Shown piece after piece: positions 2,041 through 30,811 of a stretch of DNA of 32,000 nucleotides. The translations under genes were made by a program, and so were the position numbers. Each line of letters opens with the position of its first letter. Positions within the stretch are counted from its first letter, which is position 1. Under the pieces are notes generated by a model. It ran no database searches and had not been told where the DNA came from. It was given only the letters and a program-made list of their open reading frames with translations. The stretch is from Microcystis aeruginosa NIES-843 (GTDB lineage: Bacteria > Cyanobacteriota > Cyanobacteriia > Cyanobacteriales > Microcystaceae): positions 180,001-212,000 of the forward strand of contig NC_010296.1 of NCBI RefSeq assembly GCF_000010625.1. The letters are read 5' to 3'.

Positions 2041-2296
2041 CAGTTATCAGTTATCAGTAATCAGTAATCAGTTATCAGTTAAGTAGGTAGGCGTTAAAAA
2101 TTATCAGATCCCCCCGCCTATCGGCACCCCCCTTATCAAGGGGGGCAGGGGGGATCGAACCTAAAATCGATTTTAAATTTAATTATAACCAGTTACTTAT
2201 CAGTGATCAGATGTGAGTTTTCAGTTTACATTTTTATCAGTAATCAGTAATCAGTTCACTGTTTACTGATTACTGTTCACTGATTACTGTTTACTG
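2041..2296. repeat. heptamer arrays in inverted orientation, (CAGTTAT/CAGTAAT)n ... (TACTGAT/TACTGTT)n, with an internal G/C hairpin
   Basis: 2041-2080 reads cagttatcagttatcagtaatcagtaatcagttatcagtt. 2237-2296 reads atcagtaatcagtaatcagttcactgtttactgattactgttcactgattactgtttactg and is self-complementary. 2127-2147 is the hairpin ccccccttatcaagggggg. The block fills the gap between convergent genes. Confidence 0.85.
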
Positions 2297-2314
2297 AAAA
2301 TACACCCCACTTCC

Positions 2315-3442
2315 CTAACAACCATACCAAAGCTTTTCTATCTGTTTTGCTAGGGCCAATAACTCAGAGCGATCGCTTGTATCCCTTAAGAGGGTGACAT
2401 GGCCTAATTTTCGACCGGGACGGGATTTTTTACCATACCAAAAAACCTGAGCGTCTGGAATTGCCGCTAAAATTGCTCTTTTTTCGCCATAATCGCCGTC
2501 ACTATCCTCAAAACCCAATAAATTAACCATGACTGCCCCAGCAGATTTTAAGTCCGTGGCTCCGAGGGGCAAATTAGCCACTGCTTGCAGTTGTAGGGCA
2601 AATTGGGAGGTAAGACAGGCAGAAAGGCTGTAATGACCCGAATTATGGGTACGGGGAGCGATTTCATTAATCAATACCTCTCCCTGCGGAGTGACAAATA
2701 ACTCTATCCCGAAAACACCCACCGCCGACAAACTACTTAACAGATGATGGGCGATAGATTCGGTTTGAGCCTGTAATGATTGGTTAAGAGCGGCGGGAGC
2801 AATCACCCAGTGACAGACTTGCTCCTCTTGATAGGTTTCCACCACGGGATAGGTGACGATTTCCCCGGTTAATCCCCTAGCGGCAACGATGGCTAATTCT
2901 CGCTCGTAGGGAATATAAGCTTCTAACATCAAGTCAAGACGCTCTAATTGCGGCTTTTTGGCGTTTAATTCTTCAGGAGTGCGGATAATAAAGGTTCCTT
3001 GACCATCATAACCCTGTCGTCGCGCTTTCAGCACTAGCGGAAAAGGATAATTTTCTAGTGGGGATAAATTATCTATCGCCCAAAAATCAGGCACAGGCAA
3101 CCCTAGGGAGCGTAAATAACATCTTTGCTCGTATTTATCCAATAGGGGGCGCAGATTTGCCAAACTAGGATAGAATTTCACTCCTGTGGCCGCTAATTCT
3201 TCTAGGGCATCTAAATTAACAAACTCATTTTCAAAAGTGATCAGATCACAATGTTGAGCTAGTTTTTTTGTGCCTTCCACGTCAGCTATTTCCGCAAAGA
3301 CAACCCCGTCAGCTAAAGCAACGGCGGGATCATCGGGGTGTGGTGTTTGTACAATTAGAGAAATGCCTAATTTCTTGGCTTCCTGTGCCATCATCCATGC
3401 TAATTGTCCACCACCAATAACACCAACCCTTGTTTGCATCAT
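2315..3442 (-). CDS. purK: N5-carboxyaminoimidazole ribonucleotide synthase (ATP-grasp)
   Basis: ORF track, 375 aa. It has the N-terminal VGVIGGGQLAWMMAQEA, then NEIAPRTHNSGH and GRKLGHVT, colinear with E. coli PurK as I recall it. Confidence 0.9.
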   Translation of the reverse strand: MMQTRVGVIGGGQLAWMMAQEAKKLGISLIVQTPHPDDPAVALADGVVFAEIADVEGTKKLAQHCDLITFENEFVNLDALEELAATGVKFYPSLANLRPLLDKYEQRCYLRSLGLPVPDFWAIDNLSPLENYPFPLVLKARRQGYDGQGTFIIRTPEELNAKKPQLERLDLMLEAYIPYERELAIVAARGLTGEIVTYPVVETYQEEQVCHWVIAPAALNQSLQAQTESIAHHLLSSLSAVGVFGIELFVTPQGEVLINEIAPRTHNSGHYSLSACLTSQFALQLQAVANLPLGATDLKSAGAVMVNLLGFEDSDGDYGEKRAILAAIPDAQVFWYGKKSRPGRKLGHVTLLRDTSDRSELLALAKQIEKLWYGC

Positions 3443-3948
3443 TGATCACATCCTAAAGATTCCGGGGTAGAGATGCCGGTTTTTGAGTTGACACCCTCGG
3501 CTCTTTCACAGAGATTTTTGATTTGTTGAGCGTCAAGCACGGCAAAACTAAAATCAGCACCGTTGATATTGACTCCCTCAAAAATGGTACGCAGCATAAT
3601 TGCTTCGGCAAAAATGGCATCGCTTAAATCGGAATTTTTAAAGGTACTCAGATAGGCTAACCCATTGGTTAAGTCCGCTCCATGAAAATTGCCTTCGATG
3701 ATAGAGGCTCCGTTAAACACTGCTCCGCGCAAATCGGCAGAACTAAAGTTAGAATCTTGCAGATTAACGTTAGTAAATTGGGCAGATTGCAAATTTTGTC
3801 CCGAAAAATCCTTTCCTGTCAGATTCTGGTTTTCATAACTGGCATTGGCTCCTGTGACAGCAGCAGAACTGGCAGCTAAGGCATTGACAGGAGATAGGAT
3901 AAATAGTAAGGCAAAAAAAGCGATCGCTAATCGAAAGATAGTCTTCAT
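3439..3948 (-). CDS. secreted pentapeptide-repeat protein
   Basis: The ORF track gives 3439..3999. I prefer the internal ATG at 3948, which yields MKTIFRLAIAFFALLFILSPVNALA, a signal peptide. The body is tandem A(D/N)LxX pentapeptides (NLQDSNFSSADLRGAVFNGASIIEGNFHGADLTNG). Its stop overlaps the purK start (ATGA), so the two are likely co-transcribed. Confidence 0.75.
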   Translation of the reverse strand: MKTIFRLAIAFFALLFILSPVNALAASSAAVTGANASYENQNLTGKDFSGQNLQSAQFTNVNLQDSNFSSADLRGAVFNGASIIEGNFHGADLTNGLAYLSTFKNSDLSDAIFAEAIMLRTIFEGVNINGADFSFAVLDAQQIKNLCERAEGVNSKTGISTPESLGCDQ

Positions 3949-4132
3949 TGGCGGAAAATTCCATCGGTGGGCATTCTTGATTTTATAGCAGTAAGCCATC
4001 AGCCGTCAGCTTTCCGCCAGCCGCCAGAAATTGCTGGCACACAAACCCTTATAGCCCGTCTAGTGATCCAGGTGAAACCGTCTATTCGTGATAGCATAGA
4101 GTTAGACTTCCACCATTTGGGAGAGGCAAACT

Positions 4133-4522
4133 ATGATAGATTATAATTTGGATGCCGCCCATAGCATTCTCTATATGCAACCTACATCTGCACTGGCGGC
4201 GGAAGATTTTATCAAGATTGCGGAGGCAGTGGACCCCCACATTGAAGCCACTGGTGGTCTTGCTGGCGTAATCATCGAAGTCCCTAAGTTCACCGGTTGG
4301 GAGAGTTTTGGTGCCTTGGTTGCTCATTTCCGGCTGATACGCGACCATCACAAGTACGTCAGTAAGGTTGCCGTGGTGACTGATTCCACTCTGGTTAAAC
4401 TGATTGAAAGTCTGGCTTCCCACTTTGTCGCCGCTGAAGTCAGGCAGTTCCCTTGGGGGGAAACTGAGGTAGCGACCCAATGGATCTTGGGCGACTCTAC
4501 ATTACCCCTAGTGGTTTCCTGA
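4133..4522 (+). CDS. STAS/SEC14-like (SpoIIAA-like, DUF3478-type) domain protein
   Basis: ORF track, 129 aa, with a GGGAGAGG ribosome-binding site upstream. The sequence pattern (ILYMQPTSALAAEDF...VSKVAVVTDS...FPWGE) is recalled from STAS/SEC14-domain proteins. The antisense ORF 4082..4480 is judged an artefact. Confidence 0.6.
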   Translation: MIDYNLDAAHSILYMQPTSALAAEDFIKIAEAVDPHIEATGGLAGVIIEVPKFTGWESFGALVAHFRLIRDHHKYVSKVAVVTDSTLVKLIESLASHFVAAEVRQFPWGETEVATQWILGDSTLPLVVS

Positions 4523-4565
4523 CTTTTCAAACATTCTCTAAGTCCCTGTTTTGTTGTTTTGATAA

Positions 4566-6302
<1,737 letters not shown>

Positions 6303-7601: not shown

Positions 7602-7985
7602 TTAATCCTGAATATATTCTTCCCCGGTGATTAAAGCGTATTCAGCGCGGGTGAATTCTCGACCTAAATAAGCAGCATGATCGAACATAGTAATCGGACA
7701 AGGTTGGGTTTCTTCGATCACTTTGACGGCTAATTCTTTGGCAGTCCTGGCGGTGTAAATAGTCTCAGGATTGCGATCAAGTTTTTGCCTAACACCGATA
7801 ACTTTTCCCGTTTCTGGATCGACGGCTAAACCTTTTTCATTGATAATATTGCTGTAATGTTTGGCACAGATTAACCCTGCTTCTCGGTCTAGATAAATAA
7901 TAAAATATCCTGCGGGATCGAGAGCGATCGGACGTTTGGAAAGTTGATGATCAATAGCCGTGATTTGTGATTTTAATTCGCTCAT
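7602..7985 (-). CDS. DUF4346-like protein (MtrA-related small domain)
   Basis: The ORF track gives 7602..8030. I prefer the ATG at 7985 (MSELKSQITAIDHQL...). LDPAGYFIIYLDR..GLICAKHY and MFDHAAYLGREFTRAEYAL..G.EYIQD are recalled as the DUF4346 signature. Confidence 0.55.
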   Translation of the reverse strand: MSELKSQITAIDHQLSKRPIALDPAGYFIIYLDREAGLICAKHYSNIINEKGLAVDPETGKVIGVRQKLDRNPETIYTARTAKELAVKVIEETQPCPITMFDHAAYLGREFTRAEYALITGEEYIQD

Positions 7986-8415
7986 TTTCTTGACAAAATC
8001 ACTTAAATATGTAGATGAAAGCAAGAGCAAATTATATCACATACCATCATCCTTTTTCTAGAGCATTTTGTAGATATAGGCCGTATGTATTTTCTGTGAG
8101 CAAATCTGACCTACTGAGCAATAATACTAAATCCTGTTTAAAAAGTATAGGAGCGTGGGGAGCGTTGGAGGAGGGAGAAACAATCCATAACCTGAGAGTT
8201 AATCGGACTATTAATACTAAATCCGTTGAGTATAGGCTACATATCAGGACAGGCAAAGGGCAAGAGGCAAGAGGCAAAAGGGGGAATAAATAATCAGTCT
8301 TTAATAACCGGATTTAGTATAAAAACGGATTTGGTATCATACCAGCTGCAATGTGGGGGCGCAAAGCTCGCGCCCATAATGTATGGTCGAGAAATAACAG
8401 GCTGATAGCTTAATG

Positions 8416-9810
8416 CTATAAATCTTCTTCTACCAAAGCCTCAACCCGTCCTGTTTTGACCGCTTCCACCAAAGCGGCGTGATCTTGTTCTGTCTGCTCG
8501 GCATAAGCGATCGCAAATTCGCCCATCGCTAGATCGAACTGATCTCCTTTCCCCAAATAACCGCTAATGGTGGCCGCATCTCCAGATTTAGCGTGGGCGC
8601 GGGCTAAGGTCCAGCCACAGAACTCGGCGTAGCGTTGCAGTTGGGCGGCCGACACTCCCTCAATGGGCAGGGAAAACTTCATATCCCGCAGTTGCCGTAA
8701 ATAGAAGTTATTGCCCCGTCTTCCCTGGGTCCAGCCTAAAAATATGTCGCTAGAGGATTGCATCAATCTCTGGCCTGTAACCACCCGTTGTCCCTGATTT
8801 TCATACTGGCTCTTGGCGGTATAGGGTTCAAGAACCGAAGGGCAAGCCTCCTTAACTTGTAGGATGAGGGGATGGTTATCTTCCGAGAAAAATAGGGCGA
8901 TATAACATCTGGTGCCGACACTGCCAATGCCTACCACTTTCAGGGCAAAGTCCTCTAACCGGTAGCGATCAAACAGGACCCGGCGTTCCTCCGGCAGGGA
9001 TTGGCGATAGTCTTCCAGACCCTCACGCACGAGAGTCTCCCAATCCGGTTCGTTGACATGGTAGAGAATGGGCGGCTGATCGACAAAGCGATTGCGTCCC
9101 GCGGTTTGGGTGACGATCTTGGGGTAGAGATGTTCGATGATGCGCTCGCGGGCTTTTGTCATCATCTGTTCCCGTATCTTCCGCGTCTTTTCGTCGGGAG
9201 CCATCTCGATCACCTGTTCTACTCCTATGCGCGTGTACCATACCTCTAACGGACTGAGGCGAGAATATTCCCGCAGGTGTTCCCGATAGGAACGAGCGCA
9301 ATCGATCGCCGCCGCCTTCGATTCTCGATCGGATAGATCGCTATCCCTGCCGGCGATGACAAAGCTGACCACTAGACGCTTGAGATCCCATTCCCAAGGT
9401 GCGGGTAGGGTTTCGTCGAAATCGTTAATATCGAAGACTAAATTGCGTTCGGGGGTGGCAAAAAATCCGAAGTTCAAGAGGTGGCAATCCCCGCAGGCCT
9501 GCACGATAATGTCGGTTTTGGGAGTGGTGGCCAGATCGTAGGCCATCAAAGCAGCGGAACCGCGCAGGAAGGTAAAGGGACTCCGCAACATTCGTCCGTA
9601 GCGGATAGGAATCAATTCCTGTAATCGCCCTCGATTTGATGCTTCGATGATCTCGATCGGCTCTCGACCAGCTGCGGGGGGTTGCCAGATAGCGTGGCGA
9701 GAACGCGGCAATCGCTCCCGGAGGGATTTACCGATCTGGATGCGTTCCTCCCGTGAACGGAATCGAGCTTGAGAGGGTGACCGGATCGGGGTTTCTATTT
9801 GGTGGTTCAT
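8416..9810 (-). CDS. DUF2252 domain protein
   Basis: ORF track, 464 aa. The N-terminal R.ERIQ.GK.LR...PRS.H..W and LIPIRYGRMLRSPFTFLRGSAALMAYDLA are recalled as typical DUF2252. Its GC content is visibly higher than the neighbouring genes. Confidence 0.7.
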   Translation of the reverse strand: MNHQIETPIRSPSQARFRSREERIQIGKSLRERLPRSRHAIWQPPAAGREPIEIIEASNRGRLQELIPIRYGRMLRSPFTFLRGSAALMAYDLATTPKTDIIVQACGDCHLLNFGFFATPERNLVFDINDFDETLPAPWEWDLKRLVVSFVIAGRDSDLSDRESKAAAIDCARSYREHLREYSRLSPLEVWYTRIGVEQVIEMAPDEKTRKIREQMMTKARERIIEHLYPKIVTQTAGRNRFVDQPPILYHVNEPDWETLVREGLEDYRQSLPEERRVLFDRYRLEDFALKVVGIGSVGTRCYIALFFSEDNHPLILQVKEACPSVLEPYTAKSQYENQGQRVVTGQRLMQSSSDIFLGWTQGRRGNNFYLRQLRDMKFSLPIEGVSAAQLQRYAEFCGWTLARAHAKSGDAATISGYLGKGDQFDLAMGEFAIAYAEQTEQDHAALVEAVKTGRVEALVEEDL

Positions 9811-10354
9811 AGCGACTTTTTCCCCTGAATGAGATTACATCCCTTGCTGTTAGATGACTAAATGAATACAAGCAATAGGAAATAGATAAGTTAAGACTGA
9901 TGGTTCCCCTTCTTGGATAACTTTCTAACATTTCCTCCTGTAGAGATAGCTTCTGATGCTCGGTTCAACAATTAATCTTCACTCGCCTCTTATCCGGGGA
10001 AGATCAACATCATCGATGATACATTTTTTTCTGGAATGGCTATCTCTTAAATTTGCTTAACTTTTAGCCCAATGGCAGCCCTACTATTTCGATTATATCT
10101 TGCTCAAAAATTGCTGGCGGAATGCTCGTAACAAAATTTTATCTAATGGTCAGCCTTCAGCCAGGGGCTAAAATCTCGCTCTTTTGTCGGGAAAAGGGGG
10201 GTATATTTCAGGTTAAAGGTGAAAATTTCCCCCTTGCCCGACTTCTGTAAGAAGTTTTCTGTTTATTTTTTTGGGTGATGATTTGGTAGTATTAGTTTAG
10301 GTCTGTGAACCGAGAATTTCCCCCTAGATTGTCTAGAAATGAGCGATGAAAGTG

Positions 10355-12100
10355 TCAATCTTGAGCAGGGGATGATGGGGGTGGGTTACGATGATGAAAC
10401 GCCTCGATCGCTTCCTCTAGGGTTGGATAAATACGTTCGGTCGAGATCGTCTCGGATAGGTCTCCTTTTTTTAATTGCTGATATAAATCTTGCTTCACCC
10501 GCGCCATGGCAAAAGTAATACCACTACCGATTAATTCTCGATGTAATTCTTTCAACATATCGACCGCCGTAATATCGATATCTAGAATCGCTTCGGCGTT
10601 GAGAACGAACCACTCGACGGGGACTTTCTCCGCCTCGATCGCCGCTATTACCCGTTTCCGAAAATTCTCGGCGTTGGCGAAACAGAGGGGCGCGTCGTAA
10701 CGGTAGAGAACCAATCCGGGGATCGTCGTTGCGCCCTGCCAATCCTCGATGTCGTGCAGGCCCGCGAGATTCGGCACTTCCCCCAAAACCGCATCGTGTG
10801 GTCGCATCAGCCGCGTGAACAGATCGACCACCGATAACCCCACGGCAACGCCCACCCCGACGAGGATATCGGTGGCCAGGACACCGAACATGGTGACGAG
10901 TGCCAATCGGAACTCACTGGTTTTGAAACAACGCAGACGGTTGAACTCCGATATCTCGATCAGACGGAGCGCGGCGTAAATCACGATCGCCCCCAGGGCC
11001 GGTTTCGGAAACAGGGATAGTAGCGGACGTAAGAACAAGAGTACCAAAATCACGATCAGAAAAGCCACGAGGGAAAACAGTTGCGATCGACTGCCCAGAG
11101 AATCGCCGATCGCCGTGCGACTGCCGCTACTGCTGACGGGAAAGCCTTGCATGATGCCGTTACCGATATTCACCGCTCCCAGGGCGAGTAATTCCTGATT
11201 GCCATCGATGCGATAGTTGTTTTTCGCCCCGAAGGCGCGGGCGGTCAAGACGTTATCGGAATAGCCAACGAGGGCGATACCGATGGCCGAGGAGAGTAAA
11301 TAGACGAGCTGCTGGGAAGAAAAACCTCTCGGTACTTTCAAACTCGGTAAACCGGCGGGAATTTCCCCGATCACGGCGATGCCTCGCTCGTTCAGATCGA
11401 ACAAATATACTGCCGATGTCGCCAGTAGAACCGCGAGTAAAGGGCCGGGGGCATTGGGAAAGCGACGTTGTACCACTAGCAGGAAAATTAGAACAGCGGC
11501 GGCGAGAATCAGAGTTGGTGGGTGAATCTCGGATAAATGTCCCGAAAATTCCCCGATCTGTCCGAAAAGCGATTCCGCTTTCAGTGACATCCCGCTAATT
11601 TTTCCCAACTGACCGACGATCATGATCACCGCTACTCCGGCCATGTAGCCGACGAGGATCGGTTTGGAGAGGAGATCGGCGAGAAACCCCAACCGGGCGA
11701 AAGCGGCGACGCAGCAGACGCTCCCCACGAGTAGGGCCAATAGACTGCACAGACTGGCGTAGTTGCTACTATCCCCGGCGACGAGGGGCATGATAGCGGC
11801 GGCGGTCATTACTGCCGTCGTCGATTCTGGCCCGACGGAGAGTTGTGGTGAGGAACCGAGCAGGGCATAGATGAGCAGCGGCGGTAGGATCGCCCATAAT
11901 CCGGCGATCGGTTGTACTCCGGCCAGTTCCGCATAGGCCAGACATTGGGGAACGAGATAGGCCGCCACGGTGATCCCCGCGATGACATCTCCCCGCAACC
12001 AGGCCGAGCGATAGGATCGCAGACGCTTTAACCCGGGTAGAGAAAACCGCTCCCTAGAAAAATTTAATCGAGTAGGCATCCTCATCTCTTCTCCTGTCAT
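10355..12100 (-). CDS. SulP-family anion permease with C-terminal STAS domain
   Basis: ORF track, 581 aa. It has the N-terminal SulP signature region (LRGDVIAGITVAAYLVPQCLAYAELAGVQPIAGLWA), about 10-12 hydrophobic segments and a C-terminal STAS domain (VLYRYDAPLCFANAENF...ILDIDITAVDML.EL...L...GI.FAMARV). It is not BicA-like at the N-terminus. Confidence 0.85.
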   Translation of the reverse strand: MTGEEMRMPTRLNFSRERFSLPGLKRLRSYRSAWLRGDVIAGITVAAYLVPQCLAYAELAGVQPIAGLWAILPPLLIYALLGSSPQLSVGPESTTAVMTAAAIMPLVAGDSSNYASLCSLLALLVGSVCCVAAFARLGFLADLLSKPILVGYMAGVAVIMIVGQLGKISGMSLKAESLFGQIGEFSGHLSEIHPPTLILAAAVLIFLLVVQRRFPNAPGPLLAVLLATSAVYLFDLNERGIAVIGEIPAGLPSLKVPRGFSSQQLVYLLSSAIGIALVGYSDNVLTARAFGAKNNYRIDGNQELLALGAVNIGNGIMQGFPVSSSGSRTAIGDSLGSRSQLFSLVAFLIVILVLLFLRPLLSLFPKPALGAIVIYAALRLIEISEFNRLRCFKTSEFRLALVTMFGVLATDILVGVGVAVGLSVVDLFTRLMRPHDAVLGEVPNLAGLHDIEDWQGATTIPGLVLYRYDAPLCFANAENFRKRVIAAIEAEKVPVEWFVLNAEAILDIDITAVDMLKELHRELIGSGITFAMARVKQDLYQQLKKGDLSETISTERIYPTLEEAIEAFHHRNPPPSSPAQD

Positions 12101-23969: not shown

Positions 23970-24337
23970 TCCTCGTCCGCTGGTTCTTCTAAATGTTCCG
24001 AGACCGCGTAATAAAGGTCAAGAACATGATGATCGGCAAGACGATAAAAGACTCTCCGTCCCTGTTTTTGGTATTTAACTAATCTTAAGGCTCTTAGGGT
24101 TCTTAACTGGTGCGATACGGCCGATTCACTCATCCCTAAGTCGTCGGCTAAGTCACAAACACATAATTCTTGTTTGGCTAAAAGCGACAGAATTCTGAGG
24201 CGGTTGGCATCCCCCAAAAGGCTGAAAAATTCGGCCATTTTTTGGGCTTTTTCTAGTTCTAATCCCTGCAAGTTCTGGAATTTCCCCTCTTGGTGATGGG
24301 ATTCCCCACAAACCGGTGCTATTTTCTCTATGGCCAT
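23966..24337 (-). CDS. smtB: ArsR/SmtB-family metal-sensing repressor
   Basis: The ORF track gives 23966..24445. I prefer the ATG at 24337, giving 123 aa, close to the 122-aa SmtB. The winged [68 protein letters not shown] is colinear with Synechococcus SmtB as recalled. It lies directly downstream of a metallothionein gene. Confidence 0.8.
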
Positions 24338-24435
24338 ATTTTTTCCTGATCGGTTATTAAGGGAAAGTTGAGAAAGGGAGGTATCGATCAAATCTTCCAT
24401 GCCGATACTTGTCCCCTTCTCCCCAATAACTAAAT

Positions 24436-24606
24436 TTAAACGCAACCACAGCCCTGGTGTCCACAGCCTTTCTCGTTCTCGTTAACGTGACCATTGGCAC
24501 AAGCTTGGGAACAGTAGTATTGATCGTTTTCTTTGATGGCATCGGCGATCGATACTACACACAAACAGGATTTACAAGCACATTTCATCATGGTGACAGC
24601 GATCAT
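24436..24606 (-). CDS. smtA: bacterial metallothionein (SmtA/BmtA family), 56 aa
   Basis: Not in the ORF track because it is under 60 aa. My own translation is [56 protein letters not shown]. The Cys/His pattern and length match Synechococcus SmtA (..KCACEPCLC...YYCSEACADGH...GCGHTGCNC..). A GAGGT ribosome-binding site sits 8-12 nt upstream. Confidence 0.85.
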
Positions 24607-24638
24607 GGTTACTACCTCTGAACTTCTTTACTGACTTT

Positions 24639-24663
24639 AGTATAACATCTGAACAGATGTTCA
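24639..24663 (-). promoter_or_regulatory. candidate SmtB operator overlapping a TATACT -10-like box
   Basis: TGAACA-GA-TGTTCA is a perfect 6-2-6 dyad at 24650-24663. It overlaps the perfect 8-2-8 dyad AACATCTG-AA-CAGATGTT at 24644-24661. On the minus strand a TATACT box (24644-24639) immediately follows, about 35 nt upstream of smtA. As I recall, the smt operator of Synechococcus contains TGAACA-GT-TATTCA. Confidence 0.6.
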
Positions 24664-24751
24664 TGGATTGAATAAAGTTAAATTTTTCTAAAACTCAGAC
24701 GGGTGGGAAGTTCTCCTTGATCAGTGATCAGATTTGAGTTTTCAGTTTGCA

Positions 24752-24846
24752 TATAGAGCTTTTCACGTTACTGAGGTATCGACAAGTTTTGCCAACAAAG
24801 AGTTTAAGCCCCTTGCCCATGCCTCATTCTGATGAAAACTGCTATA
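24752..24846. mobile_element. ~95-bp MITE-like element, copy 2
   Basis: It is near-identical to 7445-7540 (TATAGAGCTTTTCAC...GAAAACTGCTATA) and is preceded by the same tgatcagat(t/g)tgagttttcagttt motif seen at 2205-2228. Confidence 0.65.
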
Positions 24847-24919
24847 TATAGTCTAAGGTAGAAAAAAGTTAAATACTGACTAAACCGCCCAATCATAACA
24901 ACTTAGGCGACAAATTCTG

Positions 24920-25564
24920 ATGTTATTAGCATTAAAACAACTAACTGTTACCCCAGGCGACCGCCTGTTGTTAACTTCACTCACTTGGCAAGATTATGAA
25001 AAAATTCTTGACGAATTGGGAGAGCGACGGTCAATTCGTCTATCTTATAGTCAGGGAACTTTAGAAGCAATGACTCCTCTTTTTATTGATGAAAACACCA
25101 AAGTTTTAATCGGGGATTTGGTTAAAGTTCTCCTGGATGAATTAGAGTTAGACTATGAACCCGCTGGATCGACAACCTTTAAAAATCAGCAAATGGATCA
25201 AGGAATAGAACCAGATGAGTCTTTTTATATCGAAAATTGTGCTGCTGTTAGGGGAAAAAAGCGACTTGATCTGGCTATTGATCCCCCTCCCGATTTAGCA
25301 ATTGAAATTGATATTACTAAGCGAACCCGATTTAATAATTATGAGCGATTGGGTGTTCCTGAATTGTGGCGATATAATGGAGAGAGACTGGAAATCAATG
25401 TTTTGCAAGGATCGGAATATGTTGAATCTTCCCAAAGCCGACTATTTTCTCAATTTAATCTAATAGAAAAAATTCCAGAAACGCTACAAAATAGTCAAAA
25501 AATAGGTAGTGCAATGGCATTAAAACAATTCCGAATTTGGGTCAAGCAAACGCTTAATCCCTGA
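24920..25564 (+). CDS. Uma2-family (DUF820) PD-(D/E)xK endonuclease
   Basis: ORF track, 214 aa. It has LTWQDYEKILDELGERRSIRLSYSQGTLEAMTP, EPDESFYI and PPDLAIEIDIT, typical of Uma2 proteins that are abundant in cyanobacteria. Confidence 0.75.
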   Translation: MLLALKQLTVTPGDRLLLTSLTWQDYEKILDELGERRSIRLSYSQGTLEAMTPLFIDENTKVLIGDLVKVLLDELELDYEPAGSTTFKNQQMDQGIEPDESFYIENCAAVRGKKRLDLAIDPPPDLAIEIDITKRTRFNNYERLGVPELWRYNGERLEINVLQGSEYVESSQSRLFSQFNLIEKIPETLQNSQKIGSAMALKQFRIWVKQTLNP

Positions 25565-25596
25565 CTTTAAATGGACAACGAAGTCAGGGAACTTTT
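25559..25596 (+). terminator. 9-bp-stem hairpin CCCTGACTT...AAGTCAGGG followed by aacTTTTg; shared by the convergent Uma2 and PEP-CTERM genes
   Basis: Read directly. The stem begins inside the last Uma2 codons. An almost identical hairpin is at 27120-27150. Confidence 0.5.
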
Positions 25597-25615
25597 GCCG
25601 ATGATAATTTAGGGG

Positions 25616-26403
25616 TTACAGTTTTCGCTTTAAAGCCGCACCTATTCCTAATACTCCTAAACTCAGTATTCCTAGAATTGATGAGGGTTCGGGGATAGAA
25701 GTGACAGGAGGTGGGGGAGTAATTTCTAATTGTAGTGTTGGTGGAGCAAATTGAGTAGCTTCCTTACCAGCAAAATTTTGGGTAGAAACGTTAAAATTAT
25801 CGCGCGTGATGATTAGCGTTGCTAGATTGTTCGTATCATTCTGTAAAAAGCTGACTAATTTAGGATCGGAAAAACTAATTATCGTACCAAATGGTGTACT
25901 TGTAGGATTAAAAGAGAATAATCCTAGAAAAGTGGTTTGGCTGGAATCAATCGTGTTACCTCCCCCGTTAGCAGGTGCATTATTCCAAGTAATTGTGGAT
26001 TCGTTCCAGTTCTCTCCAGCATTTCCATCATTTAACCCATAGACACTGTAGCTAGACAGTGGAGGAGTAGAGTTATTATCAACATAAGTCCAATTGAAAA
26101 TAGCGTTACTAATGTTTGATTTATTGATGGAGTTTAGATCGAATCTTAGGTATCCTTTCCTTATGACAGTAGAATCACCCTTAATTGCAACTGTTGGATC
26201 TACTGCATTGAAATTTGTATCAGGATTAATATTAACAACAAAAGTATCTGCACCATTGCCAAAAGCTGTTGTACGATTAACAGTTGCTGCTTGAACAGGT
26301 GCTATAACAAAGGTACTAACAGCTAAAACAGAAGATGTAATCGCTATCTTGGATAAGCAATTCTTACCCCCCCCGCAAAATTAATCAGTTTTGCTAATGT
26401 CAT
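25616..26403 (-). pseudogene. PEP-CTERM protein with DNRLRE-like carbohydrate-binding-type domain, out of frame at a G8 tract
   Basis: A 245-codon minus-strand frame runs without a stop and contains no ATG, GTG or TTG, which is why the ORF track misses it. It reads KNCLSKIAITSSVLAVSTFVIAPVQAATVNRTTAFGNGADTFVV...RKGYLRFDL...ITWNNAP...IPEPSSILGILSLGVLGIGAALKRKL. The only plausible ATG (26403) is in the +1 frame and joins the long frame only if the C8/G8 run at 26367-26374 gains one base. Confidence 0.6.
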
Positions 26404-26549
26404 AATTGAAAAGCCTCTGGAGAATTAGATTTGAGTGATTGTTTAGTTGTATAGTAGTATAGTAATGAAGCTTTCTGGATTGCTCAGGGGAAATTTAAGG
26501 AAATCTTTGGGATCGCTTTAGGAAAGTTAATCATTGGATAAAATCAATG

Positions 26550-26897
26550 CTAGGGAATATTTAAGGATTTTTTGAGGGCAGTTTGAACTTGGTTTAGGAT
26601 GTCTGAGGGTAAAATGCCTAGTTTCTGTTGAAAAACGGACTGGTTGACCGTCGCAATCTTGTCAGTTCTGATTACAGAGGTCTTTTTTAAGCCTGTTTGT
26701 GAGAAGTTGGGATGTCCTTCCCTAACCAGTATCCAAGTTTCCCACCACTCTCCAGGGGGGATTTTGGAGAAGATTCCCAGGATGATTTGTTCTTCTCGAT
26801 GTACAGCTAAAACTAGCGCGGGTCTGAGTTTTGTGGTGCTAAGGTCGCTGAAGGGAAAGCGAACTAACCAAATTTCGGCAGCTTTAGGGTTGGACAT
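26550..26897 (-). CDS. PemK/MazF-family type II toxin (endoribonuclease)
   Basis: ORF track, 115 aa. EIWLVRFPFSDLSTTKLRPALVLA and TSVIRTDKIATV fit the MazF/PemK SH3-like fold signature. Confidence 0.75.
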   Translation of the reverse strand: MSNPKAAEIWLVRFPFSDLSTTKLRPALVLAVHREEQIILGIFSKIPPGEWWETWILVREGHPNFSQTGLKKTSVIRTDKIATVNQSVFQQKLGILPSDILNQVQTALKKSLNIP

Positions 26898-27069
26898 TGT
26901 AAATATCTTCCTCTGGGTCGTTCCATTCTGGAAAGCCTGTTTCTGCTAGTTTCATGAGGGTGAGGGTTTCTAGCTTGTCTTCGAGGTCTTCTAAGAGAGA
27001 AATTTGTTCTGAGAGGGGAAGTTGATAGACTAGGGTTTTGATTTCTTCAAGGGTTAGGGTGGAAATCAT
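26884..27069 (-). CDS. putative cognate antitoxin (61 aa, acidic C-terminus), family not recognised
   Basis: ORF track. It overlaps the toxin start by 14 nt, is small and acidic (LEDLEDKLE...WNDPEEDIY) and lies upstream of the toxin. Confidence 0.55.
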   Translation of the reverse strand: MISTLTLEEIKTLVYQLPLSEQISLLEDLEDKLETLTLMKLAETGFPEWNDPEEDIYNVQP

Positions 27070-27101
27070 AAGACTCTGGGGTTGTCGAGATATACATTTA
27101 T

Positions 27102-27262
27102 GTCAAGCAAACGCTTAATCCCTGACTTTAAATGTACAAGGAAGTCAGGGAACTTTTGCCGATGATAATTTAGGGGTTATAGTTTTCGGTTTAAGGCTGC
27201 ACCTATTCCTAATACTCCTAAACTCAGTAACCCTAGAATTGATAAAGGTTCGGGAACTGATC
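27102..27262. repeat. direct repeat of 25541-25700 (last 8 codons of a Uma2 gene, hairpin, PEP-CTERM 3' end)
   Basis: gtcaagcaaacgcttaatccctgactttaaatg.acaa.gaagtcagggaacttttgccgatgataatttaggggtta.agttttcg.tttaa.gc.gcacctattcctaatactcctaaactcagta..cctagaattgat is shared by eye with few mismatches. Confidence 0.8.
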
Positions 27263-27941
27263 CGGGAAGAGTACCCTGTATAAAACTATAACTGCTTATC
27301 TCCGCTAGTGCATTAGTGTAACCTGTTGCATCCCCAAAGAAAAGTCCGTCGGAAGCATTTGGGGTAACTCCACTCAAAAGGGCTAAAGTGGCAATCGGTA
27401 GGTCGTCAATGTATAATTGAGCGTTTCCGCTGTTAAATGAACCTTCCAAGCGATAATTATGAAACACGGTATTGTTAAATGATCCTGGCAGTATTTGAAA
27501 TGCTGAAATGCCGATTGCGTCAGTCCCAAACCCAACCGTAAAACGTTGTGATGAACTATTGATGCTTAATCCCAAACCAAAGAAATTTTGAGGATTTAGT
27601 ACAAATTCATCTTGAAGCACTCGTGATCGCCAAGATAAGGTAAAAGGCTGAGTCGTGTCAACGACATTCGCTAACCTATAGCCGTTAACACCATCACCTG
27701 ATCCTAATGTATTTTGAGTGAGGACACCGTTACTGATAGAAAACACATCTGTCTCCGTTGCTGTATTACCATCTACCAAATACGTCCCTCCTTGTGAACT
27801 TGGTAAGGTATTAAAGTTCAAGGTGACGTTAGAAGCGTTAACAGGTACAATCACGAAGGTACTAACAGCTAAAACAGAGGATGTGATCGCTATCTTTGAT
27901 AAGCAATTCTTATTGCTAATGTCATAACCGTAAAACCTCAT
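27177..27941 (-). CDS. PEP-CTERM sorting-domain protein with LamG/concanavalin-like middle domain
   Basis: ORF track, 254 aa. The signal peptide ...KNCLSKIAITSSVLAVSTFVIVPVNA is shared with the 25616-26403 gene. The C-terminal VPEPLSILGLLSLGVLGIGAALNRKL is a PEP motif, TM helix and basic tail. Confidence 0.75.
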   Translation of the reverse strand: MRFYGYDISNKNCLSKIAITSSVLAVSTFVIVPVNASNVTLNFNTLPSSQGGTYLVDGNTATETDVFSISNGVLTQNTLGSGDGVNGYRLANVVDTTQPFTLSWRSRVLQDEFVLNPQNFFGLGLSINSSSQRFTVGFGTDAIGISAFQILPGSFNNTVFHNYRLEGSFNSGNAQLYIDDLPIATLALLSGVTPNASDGLFFGDATGYTNALAEISSYSFIQGTLPGSVPEPLSILGLLSLGVLGIGAALNRKL

Positions 27942-28076
27942 TCAAATGAATATTACCTCTCAATGACAACCGTTTAGTATTTACCAGAATGTGCTTCCGA
28001 TGACCACTTAGGCGATCGCCATTCGTCTCCTCTGGTAACATATTGTCTGGGAACATATTGGGTGAGGCGAATGCAA

Positions 28077-28169
28077 TTAGCCTTCTAGTTCTAATCCCTG
28101 CAAGTTCTGGAATTTCCCCTCTTGGTGATGGGATTCCCCACAAACCGGTGCTATTTTCTCTAGGGCCAT
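28077..28169 (-). pseudogene. truncated smtB (first 30 codons only)
   Basis: [30 protein letters not shown] then stop. It is identical in register to the start of smtB at 24337. Homology to copy 1 ends at about 28086. The ORF track lists it as part of 28077..28280. Confidence 0.7.
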
Positions 28170-28261
28170 ATTTTTTCCCGAGCGGTTATTAAGGGAAAGT
28201 TGAGAAAGGGAGGTATCGATCGAATCTTCCATGCCGATACTTGTCCCCTTCTCCCCAATAA

Positions 28262-28432
28262 CTAAATTTGACTGCAACAACAGCCCGGGTGTCCACCGCC
28301 TTTCCCTTTAACGTGACCATCGGCACAAGCTTGGCAACAGTAGTATTGATCGTTTTCTTTGATGGCATCGGCGATCGATACTACACACTTACAGGATTCA
28401 CAAGCACATTTCATGGTGGTGACAGCGATCAT
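28262..28432 (-). CDS. smtA: second metallothionein paralogue (SmtA/BmtA family), 56 aa
   Basis: Not in the ORF track. My own translation is [56 protein letters not shown]. It has the same ribosome-binding site and 5' region as copy 1. The C-terminal Cys cluster has diverged. The plus-strand ORF 28268..28471 is the antisense artefact. Confidence 0.8.
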   Translation of the reverse strand: MIAVTTMKCACESCKCVVSIADAIKENDQYYCCQACADGHVKGKGGGHPGCCCSQI

Positions 28433-28464
28433 GGTTACTACCTCGGAACTTCTTTACTGACTTT

Positions 28465-28489
28465 AGTATAACATCTGAACAGATGTTCA
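28465..28489 (-). promoter_or_regulatory. second copy of the TGAACA-GA-TGTTCA / AACATCTG-AA-CAGATGTT operator with TATACT box
   Basis: It is identical to 24639-24663 and sits at the same distance from smtA copy 2. Confidence 0.55.
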
Positions 28490-28613
28490 TAGATTGAATA
28501 AGGTTAAATTTTTCTAAAACTCAGAGGGGAAAGTTAGAGCAGTCATCTCATATTTACTGCTCACTGATTACTGATTACTGCTCACTGTTTACTGTGTTTA
28601 GACGCGGAACAGC

Positions 28614-29186
28614 CTACCAGCGATCGCCAGCATCGTAAATTGTTAAACGTCCGACTCCTAGAGCTAATCCGGGAGAATTCTCCCCGGGGGGATAAGCAGT
28701 AATTCCAAACTGATAGACACCACCATAATCAGGATTTCGTACTGGTTTCAGACCGATGGAAACGGTATTACCAGGGGGGACAGGAGGATCAAAAATGACA
28801 GTAATCGTCTGAGTCTTGGGGTCAAAAGTAGTGGATTTTAGGGTTAATTTTTCGCCTCGCTGATTGCGATCGCCAAGAAAAGCAAAGGTTTGATCGAGAA
28901 GAAAAGCAATAGTTTGAATATTAGGCTGCTGTTGTATGGTTACTTTACCCAAGGGCACCCCGAGAGACGGCGGTAGAGCGATGGTAAGATAGTATTTGGC
29001 TCCCCAAGCACGCACGGATTGGAAAGTAGCGGAGAAATTAACCAGAGTGGGAGAACTCTCAAAAAATACTCTGCCATCGGGAAATTGTCCTGCGAGAGAG
29101 ACAGAATCATCAAAAGCGAGTATAGCAATCAAAGCGAGTTTAGATAGACTTTCAGTCTGTTTTAAAGGCAAAAAGGGAATCTTCAA
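28614..29186 (-). CDS. DUF2808-like protein
   Basis: ORF track, 190 aa. F.SSPTLV....T...VRAWGAKYYLTI.LP......LGKVTIQQ is recalled as a cyanobacterial DUF2808 pattern. The start codon is uncertain. Confidence 0.5.
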   Translation of the reverse strand: MKIPFLPLKQTESLSKLALIAILAFDDSVSLAGQFPDGRVFFESSPTLVNFSATFQSVRAWGAKYYLTIALPPSLGVPLGKVTIQQQPNIQTIAFLLDQTFAFLGDRNQRGEKLTLKSTTFDPKTQTITVIFDPPVPPGNTVSIGLKPVRNPDYGGVYQFGITAYPPGENSPGLALGVGRLTIYDAGDRW

Positions 29187-29254
29187 GGTACTATAAAATA
29201 CTGATTGTCAAGGGGAATTATAGCAAATTCACTTAACCCTCAACCGCTGCCATG

Positions 29255-29311
29255 ATCAGTTGTCAGTTATCAGTTATCAGCTGTTTTCTCCCCACTTCCC
29301 ACTTCCCACTT
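29255..29311. repeat. (CAGTTAT)n followed by (CCCACTT)3 heptamer arrays in the recF upstream region
   Basis: gatcagttgtcagttatcagttatcagctg, then cccacttcccacttcccactt at 29291-29311. Confidence 0.8.
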
Positions 29312-29337
29312 CATAATTCCCCAACCCCCAACTTGCA

Positions 29338-30465
29338 ATGTATCTAGAACACCTGCACCTTCACAGTTTTAGAAATTATGCCGAACAGGTGCTAAAATTC
29401 GAGTCCAAAAAAACAATATTATTGGGCAATAATGCTCAGGGAAAATCTAATTTACTAGAAGCGATCGAACTTTTGGCCACTCTCAAGAGCCATCGAGTCA
29501 GCAAGGATCGGGATCTGGTGCTAGAATCGGACTCGGAGGCGAGAATTTTTGCTAGGGTTAATCGTCTTTATGGCGCATCAGAATTAAGTTTAATTCTCCG
29601 TTCTTCTGGTCGTCGCACCGTGATCCGTGATCGTCAACCCCTGCGCCGTCATCTTGATTTTTTGGGCGTGATTAATGCGGTACAATTTTCTAGTCTCGAT
29701 CTGGATTTAGTGCGCGGTGGTCCGGAAGCTCGCCGAGATTGGTTAGATACTTTATTAATTCAATTAGAACCCCTATACGTTCATATTTTACAGCAATATA
29801 ATCAGGTTTTACGACAAAGAAATGCTCTCTTAAAAGAGATTCGTAAACAGGAATTAGAGGGAAAAGTTTATGGGGATTTATCCCAGCTAAAACTCTGGGA
29901 TTTACAACTAGCAGAAACCGGTTCAAGAGTAACGAGAAGAAGGGCGCGAGTCCTGCAAAGATTAATTCCTTTAGCCCAAAAATGGCACGAAAGTATTAGC
30001 GGAAAAACCGAACTTTTAGAATTACAATATATTCCCAATGTGCCTTGGGTAGAAGATGATGTCAATGGGGTACAAAGGGCTTTTTTAGATAAGATTGAAA
30101 CCCGTCGTTTGGCAGAGAAACAACTAGGGACATCGGTAGTCGGTCCGCACCGGGATGAAGTGGATTTTTTAATTAACCAAAACCCCGCTAAATCCTACGG
30201 TTCCCAAGGACAACAAAGAACTTTAGTTTTAGCCTTGAAATTAGCGGAATTACAGTTATTAGAGCAGATTATCGGGGAACCTCCCCTACTACTCCTCGAT
30301 GATGTTTTAGCGGAATTAGATATCGAACGACAAAATCAATTATTAGATGCGATCGAAGACCGTTTTCAAACTTTAATTACCACCACTCATCTCAGTTCTT
30401 TTGAGTCCCGTTGGTTGCAATCTTCCCAAGTATTTTCTGTCAAAAAGGGACATATTTTTTATTAG
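29338..30465 (+). CDS. recF: DNA replication and repair protein RecF
   Basis: ORF track, 375 aa. It has FRNY, Walker A GNNAQGKSNLLEAI, the signature SQGQQRTLVLALKLAE and Walker B LLLLDDVLAELD. Confidence 0.9.
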   Translation: MYLEHLHLHSFRNYAEQVLKFESKKTILLGNNAQGKSNLLEAIELLATLKSHRVSKDRDLVLESDSEARIFARVNRLYGASELSLILRSSGRRTVIRDRQPLRRHLDFLGVINAVQFSSLDLDLVRGGPEARRDWLDTLLIQLEPLYVHILQQYNQVLRQRNALLKEIRKQELEGKVYGDLSQLKLWDLQLAETGSRVTRRRARVLQRLIPLAQKWHESISGKTELLELQYIPNVPWVEDDVNGVQRAFLDKIETRRLAEKQLGTSVVGPHRDEVDFLINQNPAKSYGSQGQQRTLVLALKLAELQLLEQIIGEPPLLLLDDVLAELDIERQNQLLDAIEDRFQTLITTTHLSSFESRWLQSSQVFSVKKGHIFY

Positions 30466-30811
30466 CCTATAGCCACCAGCCTTCAGCCATATTCAGTTAT
30501 CAGTTATCAGGTTTTTCTCCCTATCTTTCCACTCTCTAGTCACCTCAGCAGTTTAACCCTAAACTAAAGCTACTCATTCAGTAAATAGCTGCGATATCTC
30601 GGTAGTTTGCTCTAGAAAATTTCTCATATCTTCTGGTTTAATTGTTTGGTTTAATTTATAAATTACTAACCATTCACCACCAGCTTGCAAATACCAACCA
30701 TGGTTCTGTCCAAAAAATTGTCAGGTGTCAAAATTAAAGATTTCTCGGATAGTAGATTCTTACCATAATACGATCTCAAGCTTATGAACCTTTATTTACA
30801 GACCATTGCTG

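Follow-up and report, generated by a model that had tools for sequence, protein, structure and literature searches.

The subject of this work is the metallothionein locus smtA-smtB in a stretch of 32,000 nucleotides (nt) from the genome of Microcystis aeruginosa NIES-843 (contig NC_010296.1, positions 180,001 to 212,000 of the forward strand), hereafter called the window. The locus contains two smtA genes, each lying within a direct repeat, and a single intact gene for the repressor SmtB. We interpret it, with a probability of roughly 0.65, as a duplication haplotype of the smtA-smtB operon that originated once and brought two pre-existing allele classes of smtA under one SmtB repressor. According to this interpretation the arrangement is old and common to some strains, and does not represent the decayed product of a recent metal-driven amplification. 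In the literature no account of two smtA copies, or of smtA allele classes, in Microcystis was found. The repeats and genes concerned are the following (lengths of proteins in amino acids, aa):

24251-24709, minus strand: repeat copy 1 (S1), comprising promoter/operator, smtA1, a 98-nt spacer and codons 1-29 of the intact smtB
28083-28535, minus strand: repeat copy 2 (S2), comprising promoter/operator, smtA2, spacer and smtB codons 1-29
24606 to 24436, minus strand: smtA1, class I metallothionein, 56 aa (PF02069, E=1.6e-23)
28432 to 28262, minus strand: smtA2, class III metallothionein, KGGGHPGCCCSQI, 56 aa (PF02069, E=3.7e-20)
24337 to 23966, minus strand: smtB, 123 aa, sole intact repressor gene of the ArsR/SmtB family in the locus (HTH_5, E=1.7e-19)
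28169 to 28077, minus strand: smtB stub, 29 smtB codons followed by GGC TAA (Gly and stop), 30 aa
24650-24663: SmtB-type operator core TGAACA-GA-TGTTCA upstream of smtA1, exact match
28476-28489: identical SmtB-type operator core upstream of smtA2, exact match
27942-28082, minus strand: segment j, sequence natively upstream of a PEP-CTERM gene, abutting smtB codon 29 with its distal end

Self-alignment yielded an extended match of approximately 94% identity between S1 and S2, both on the minus strand, in agreement with the direct repeats of about 450 bp claimed in a preliminary description of this DNA. A 6-nt indel within the smtA coding sequence (CDS) divides the alignment into two blocks (24251-24482 with 28083-28314, and 24476-24703 with 28302-28529; 94% identity in each pair). 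Upstream of smtA1, S1 lacks 32 nt that are present in most strains (window 24704-24711 compared with positions 7866-7897 of locus L005), the missing segment being bounded by the imperfect direct repeats AACTTCCCACC and AACTTTCCC. It is because of this deletion that the repeat seems to stop at 24709 in the window; once other strains are compared, the homology of the upstream flank of S2 reaches approximately position 28552, about 20 nt further.

Each repeat was found to carry, as previously claimed, a 56-aa SmtA-type gene and the same operator. The operator sequence TGAACAGATGTTCA occurs exactly twice in the window, against a chance expectation of 0.08. The two sites lie 44-57 nt 5' of the respective smtA start and, judged by sequence, correspond to putative SmtB-type operators of the 12-2-12 form; an identical core is present in the 12-2-12 site of Anabaena nmtA, to which a repressor of the SmtB family binds (PMC8790569). 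The truncation of smtB in the second copy is real, only the match ends after codon 29 and not after codon 30. All smtA/smtB genes of the locus are on the minus strand, with smtA followed by smtB; the two genes are co-directional and not divergent.

Both metallothioneins belong to the Metallothio_Pro family (PF02069), scoring 83.1 bits (SmtA1) and 72.3 bits (SmtA2) at a cut-off of 33. SmtA1 has nine Cys (residues 9, 11, 14, 16, 32, 36, 48, 53 and 55) and two His (40 and 50) at positions aligned to the ligands of Synechococcus SmtA, whose full set was reportedly described as Cys9His2 by Blindauer and colleagues in 2001. SmtA2 could be aligned to the same protein (PDB 1JJD, E=4.4e-12), with Gly at the equivalent of Cys47 and added Cys residues at 33 and at the position of Asn53. 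The exact SmtA1 protein is widespread in Microcystis, and the SmtA2 protein is identical to WP_080506919.1 of Microcystis aeruginosa. The two differ at residues 6, 12, 15, 33, 38 and 42-56, and the 15 aligned nucleotide differences are dispersed along the CDS; the view that the proteins differ mainly in the last Cys cluster was thus mistaken. The intact SmtB aligned to PDB 1R1T SmtB with E=1e-34, and the alpha5 ligand motif DHH...H..E is conserved ('ladhh...sehlee' opposite 'lqdhh...ldhlqe'), which identifies it as an ArsR/SmtB protein. The stub of the second copy has neither the DNA-binding domain nor the alpha5 ligand motif.

For comparison, about 45 Microcystis loci (L001-L023 and L093-L113) were collected by exact-protein look-ups and by an SmtB scan of species-representative genomes. 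Four main architectures were found between the conserved DUF2808 gene and smtA-smtB (TA, toxin-antitoxin pair):

Architecture A: DUF2808-smtA-smtB
Architecture B: DUF2808-Uma2-smtA-smtB
Architecture C, two-copy: the window, L001/L002, L003, L007 (AP019314), L100, L101, L102, L103 (LEGE 00239) and L106
Architecture D: DUF2808-(PEP 3' remnant)-hairpin-Uma2 tail-TA-PEP-Uma2-smtA-smtB

Copy number and breakpoints therefore vary between Microcystis genomes, as had been supposed, with one or two smtA copies per locus. The junction at which smtB codon 29 meets segment j (28082|28083, GAACTAGAA|GGCTAATTGC) is novel, and it is identical in all two-copy loci where it is directly readable; the alignments of L100 and L101 cross it unbroken. 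The presence of the same junction in every readable two-copy locus argues for one origin. In the BLAST comparison with the collected loci, a partial homologue of j was detected in front of the PEP gene next to Uma2 in the single-copy locus L021, which indicates that j is native PEP upstream sequence.

The two copies in the window correspond to allele classes that occur singly elsewhere. Class III is defined by the segment KGGGHxGCCC(S/R)QI, and SmtA2 is of the KGGGHxGCCCSQI type. In L093-L099 and L107-L113 class III is the only smtA and stands directly upstream of a full smtB; these loci include architectures B (L093-L096, L110), A (L097-L099) and D (L108, L109 (PCC 9809), L111, L113). In other strains the same position next to smtB is filled by class I, the SmtA1 type, or by the 54-aa class II. 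As the SmtA2 type is in many strains the sole smtA and precedes an intact smtB, we regard the two copies as allele classes of one locus, and, as each class is the sole smtA elsewhere, the two-copy haplotype acts as a fixed heterozygote. The flanks fit this picture. S1 and S2 differ by 4.2% in the upstream region, 3.1% in the spacer and 1.1% in the smtB 5' end, values near the mean divergence between strains for these segments (2.0%, 4.1% and 4.2%, respectively), so that the copies are about as different as two random alleles of the population. In L003 the copy on the DUF2808 side encodes class I within flanks of the S2 type, and the copy on the smtB side has a class III-like C-terminus; this mosaic points to exchange between the copies or with foreign alleles.

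The same mosaic, as a sign that inter-copy exchange happens, can also be cited for another history, which we consider unlikely: a tandem duplication in situ, followed by deletion, would have produced identical smtA copies, and these would have diverged as paralogs under positive selection, class III arising as a paralog and being carried later, through homologous recombination, to the place beside smtB in other strains. Such a course would account for the excess of nonsynonymous changes between S1 and S2 (13.5 nonsynonymous and 0.5 synonymous, nonsynonymous divergence being higher than that of the flanks; Fisher p=0.002) and for the smtB 5' part, where the window copies differ at 1 of 87 positions and are closer to each other than to most orthologues. 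It is difficult to reconcile with the finding that, in many haplotypes without the junction and without the deletion on the DUF2808 side, class III stands next to Uma2 and to a full smtB. Moreover, many of the differences between S2 and S1 are shared with class II alleles of single-copy strains, which shows that much of the divergence predates the duplication or is independent of it.

The single-copy loci L097-L099 (NIES-87 type) bear on how the single-origin haplotype was formed. They share with the loci of architecture C the same specific deletion, which removes about 100 nt between the DUF2808 heptamers and TGAGATGAC, and they are colinear with window positions 28083-30500 and then with the sequence from 24250 downward into the intact smtB. 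This is the predicted product of recombination between the repeats and, equally, the recipient expected before insertion. In a first possible route, a NIES-87-like single-copy haplotype of class III would have captured a class I haplotype through homologous crossing-over on one side and an illegitimate joining event on the other. In a second, tandem duplication of the segment from j to smtB codon 29 would have been followed by deletion and then by exchange with population alleles. The two routes are equally parsimonious. The illegitimate junction places a second promoter-operator-smtA unit beside DUF2808, 3.4 kb from the intact smtA-smtB operon. A comparable process is homology-facilitated illegitimate recombination or Campbell-type integration during natural transformation, for example in Acinetobacter baylyi (PMC3410848, PMC8116780), which would be expected to leave a direct duplication of the homologous anchor on both sides of the inserted DNA and one novel non-homologous junction. 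Once formed, the 450-bp repeats could plausibly mediate precise loss of the 3.4-kb interval. The proposal that this interval is prone to loss or re-amplification is supported, as regards loss, by the single-copy form, which equals the predicted deletion product.

Several observations weigh against the proposed single-origin history or limit its generality. A donor haplotype with j in its full native context beside DUF2808 was not found in the metagenome scan or among the collected loci, and transformation-type integration is for Microcystis a putative mechanism. A 33-mer scan of metagenome contigs for j without the smtB stub returned two contigs, both of them two-copy. Between the NIES-87-type single-copy loci and the two-copy loci the flanks are only 95-97% identical on both sides, values that do not separate insertion from deletion, and the mosaic of single-nucleotide polymorphisms along the repeat is likewise uninformative on this direction. 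Beyond the species representatives the sampling of loci was biased by the query proteins, and the two-copy form was present in 0 of 11 loci of GTDB species representatives, which means that the haplotype may be rare.

The DNA between the repeats, which bears on how the locus was assembled, contains the following features:

24920-25564, plus strand: gene for a putative endonuclease of the Uma2 family, 214 aa
25535-25693: inner repeat copy 1 (Uma2 3' end, hairpin, PEP1 3' end), 92% identical to copy 2 by self-alignment
26378 to 25614, minus strand: PEP1, CBM96-type PEP-CTERM gene, with no in-frame start codon in the window
26550-27069, minus strand: type II TA pair, 61-aa antitoxin (27069 to 26884) and PemK/MazF toxin (26897 to 26550)
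27096-27254: inner repeat copy 2 (PEP-CTERM 3' end, hairpin, last 30 nt of a Uma2 gene), from self-alignment
27177-27941, minus strand: PEP2, PEP-CTERM protein of 254 aa, co-oriented with smtA2 and the stub and downstream of them

The preliminary description is also right on the nested inner repeat (25535-25693 and 27096-27254, 92%) and on the order of the genes, smtB-smtA-Uma2-PEP1 / TA / Uma2tail-PEP2 / smtBstub-smtA2. From this order it had been deduced that the locus is a decayed metal-driven tandem amplification, in which at least three [smtA-Uma2-PEP] units suffered internal deletions and one smtB was truncated. We regard such a history as very improbable. It is true that the smtA repeats and the repeats of PEP 3' end, hairpin and Uma2 tail are all direct, and that the joining of smtB codon 29 to j is the junction expected from tandem duplication of the segment from j to smtB codon 29. 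Furthermore, a PEP2-type gene lies directly beside Uma2 in L019, which makes the Uma2 tail behind PEP2 a true relic of a neighbourhood of PEP2 and Uma2. However, the similarity of PEP1 and PEP2 is confined to 28 residues at the N-terminus (86% identity) and 27 at the C-terminus (85%); between these ends each has a central domain of about 190 aa, the one unrelated to the other (best E=0.42). Nor is there any similarity between the regions upstream of PEP1 (x) and PEP2 (j). Because the centres and the upstream regions are unrelated, the inner repeat is explained by shared gene ends and an old PEP-Uma2 neighbourhood rather than by a unit copied recently.

The repeats themselves are also unlike those of a young amplification. 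They are not contiguous, near-identical head-to-tail units: their identity is 94%, and 3.4 kb of non-unit DNA lies between them. The copies are 6% diverged and correspond to allele classes that already existed, and in none of the approximately 45 loci did the number of smtA copies exceed two. To arrive at the present order, one would have to assume two or more duplications and as many deletions, besides the insertion of the TA pair and a cassette swap, far more events than with a single junction. The HIP1 site GCGATCGC nearest to the breakpoint at 28082|28083 is at 28012-28019, 63 nt away, and there is none at 24251. The deduction of at least three tandem units thus finds no support in the PEP centres, the copy numbers or the age of the repeats.

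The precedent for amplification comes from Synechococcus PCC 6301, in which Gupta and colleagues are said to have found, in 1992, amplification of smtA after cadmium selection. The cadmium-selected cells resemble the present case in extra smtA dosage accompanied by a disrupted copy of smtB. They differ in that the Microcystis form is a natural, old haplotype of single origin in which the two copies are diverged, an intact smtB is kept and the breakpoint is not at HIP1. For PCC 6301, PMC6331805 cites Gupta et al. (1993) for a HIP1-mediated deletion of smtB. A link of the Microcystis locus to metal selection would be one of analogy only, as nothing in the locus ties the event to metals. We see in it no evidence for recent metal-driven amplification, but a natural copy-number polymorphism.

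Synechococcus PCC 7942/6301 (SmtA 1JJD, SmtB 1R1T) has the same BmtA-type protein with a Cys/His cluster, an ArsR/SmtB repressor and the same inverted-repeat operator of the TGAACA-N2-TGTTCA type. In PCC 7942 smtA and smtB are divergent. Microcystis differs from it in the co-directional order of smtA-smtB, in having two smtA genes and one truncated smtB, and in a class III protein that is without the Cys47 equivalent. Several BmtA isoforms per genome also occur in marine Synechococcus and Acaryochloris, where, as in Microcystis, variation is concentrated in the C-terminal ligand region and the zinc-finger site is invariant; those paralogues are dispersed, often without SmtB (Barnett et al. 2012, PMC3323870), whereas the Microcystis isoforms are alleles of one locus in tandem orientation with one type of SmtB operator.

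On the basis of the identical 12-2-12-type operators, the sole intact SmtB would be expected to repress both smtA promoters in trans. Zn or Cd would release SmtB from both sites and derepress both copies, and the derepressed cell would make two metallothionein isoforms with different ligand sets. The stub, having no DNA-binding domain, would be inert. With smtA2, the stub, j and PEP2 all in one orientation, PEP2 could come under metal control by read-through; a terminator scan between smtA2 and PEP2 gave counts not above those of shuffled sequence, by which read-through is neither favoured nor disfavoured.

The unexpectedly high diversity of SmtA at the protein level in Microcystis appears to us the more interesting lead. 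Pooled pN/pS was 1.80 for smtA and 0.09, 0.12, 0.12, 0.17 and 0.20 for the neighbouring genes recF, smtB, pentapeptide, Uma2 and DUF2808, respectively. The minimum numbers of changes were 31 nonsynonymous and 7 synonymous in smtA (51 sequences) versus 8 and 29 in smtB (Fisher p=2e-7). When the two window copies are compared, 15 substitutions fall in the 165 aligned nt of the CDS (9%) and 8 in 280 nt of the flanks (p=0.007). A protein search gave at least 13 smtA clusters at 90% identity, and the ligand Cys and His residues are invariant apart from the class III switch. Since the ratio of 31:7, for the gene as a whole, comes near the neutral site ratio of about 4:1, the safe statement, which derives from sequence comparison, is that evolution at some 20 codons of smtA, non-ligand and C-terminal ones, has been either strongly relaxed or diversifying. 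A diversity-generating retroelement was considered as the source of the variability and rejected: the substitutions show no specificity for adenine, and no element of this kind was observed.

We put forward only tentatively, and with rather more doubt than confidence, the further idea that diversifying or balancing selection keeps at least three functionally distinct isoform classes at this one locus, two of which were captured by the two-copy haplotype as a fixed heterozygote. If this were so, class III would represent a rewired ligand set, with the Cys47 equivalent replaced by Gly and Cys gained at 33 and 53, and the metal-niche adaptation of a bloom-forming cyanobacterium would be written into allele classes and a structural polymorphism. 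In BmtAs the C-terminal site C was found to be the least conserved and may tune metal binding (Barnett et al., PMC3323870), and this matches the region in which the classes of Microcystis diverge from one another. How Zn, Cd and Cu are buffered in this bloom-forming organism is set by the copy number and the isoform type of its metallothioneins, and the two-isoform haplotype together with its single-isoform relatives offers a comparative system for the variable C-terminal ligand region of BmtA. The locus also illustrates that an apparent duplication pair can instead be two population alleles united, and how short arrays of repeats, together with the conserved ends of genes, drive the structural turnover of Microcystis genomes.

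Breakpoints cluster in arrays of heptamer repeats, in the hairpin and at the conserved ends of PEP genes, and the heptamer arrays together with the PEP ends turn the entire locus into a hotspot of rearrangement. In the 20-32 kb part of the window, Rfam and tRNA scans gave no match, hence there is no sign of a tRNA-targeted island. The array next to S2 is:

28553-28594: heptamer array CAGTRAN (minus strand) between DUF2808 and S2, of strain-variable copy number

Besides this array downstream of DUF2808, CTGATMA heptamers are found upstream of smtA (window 24714-24735). The arrays range from 2 to more than 12 units between strains, and most rearrangement breakpoints of the locus coincide with them (flanks of L009, L014 and L022). 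The smtA-smtB spacer is a second site of insertions and breakpoints (L006, L023, L105): insertions of about 100-120 nt are present in L006 (8226-8326) and L023 (9856-9976), and in L105 unrelated DNA, encoding a PLD/helicase protein and an SMC-like ATPase, begins at 2293, 55 nt past the smtA stop.

The TA pair was assigned to PemK/MazF on the basis of the toxin (PF02452, E=5e-12) and of the 61-aa open reading frame, which overlaps the toxin gene by 14 nt. The PEP-CTERM genes act as cassettes in which a signal peptide of about 28 aa, a sorting signal of about 27 aa and the 3' hairpin are conserved and at least five unrelated central types are swapped (CBM96, PEP2 type, a 277-aa protein, a 221-aa protein and DUF642). 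In other strains the slot adjacent to Uma2 is occupied as follows:

L003, 10074-10907: gene for the 277-aa protein
L019, about 7990-8800: PEP2-type gene
L021, 345-1010: gene for the 221-aa protein
L102 and L103 (in L103 at 10307-10954): DUF642 type

A homopolymeric G tract follows immediately after the alternative start ATGACATTAGCA of the PEP-CTERM genes. At the 5' end of PEP1 it appears as C8 on the plus strand (26367-26374), and with this length of 8 there is no in-frame start; tracts of 10 in L007 (6220-6231) and 12 in L021 (approximately 370-381) are in frame. Possible readings of the tract are a slipped-strand on/off switch, a pseudogene and an artefact of sequencing. In L007, a close relative that also has two copies, PEP2 is broken by an insertion sequence with a DDE transposase and by IS605/TnpB fragments (2217-5443), and the remainder of the locus is 99.7-100% identical to the window.

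Finally, several strains have an insertion of about 130 nt with a long hairpin (CAGAAAACGGGTTTCTCGGAGAAACCCGTTTTCT) directly upstream of the smtA promoter. It is absent from the window and looks like a miniature inverted-repeat element. Its sites are:

L001, about 4240-4380: hairpin insertion
L023, about 9360-9500: hairpin insertion
L094, about 8760-8900: hairpin insertion
L021, about 2150-2290: hairpin insertion

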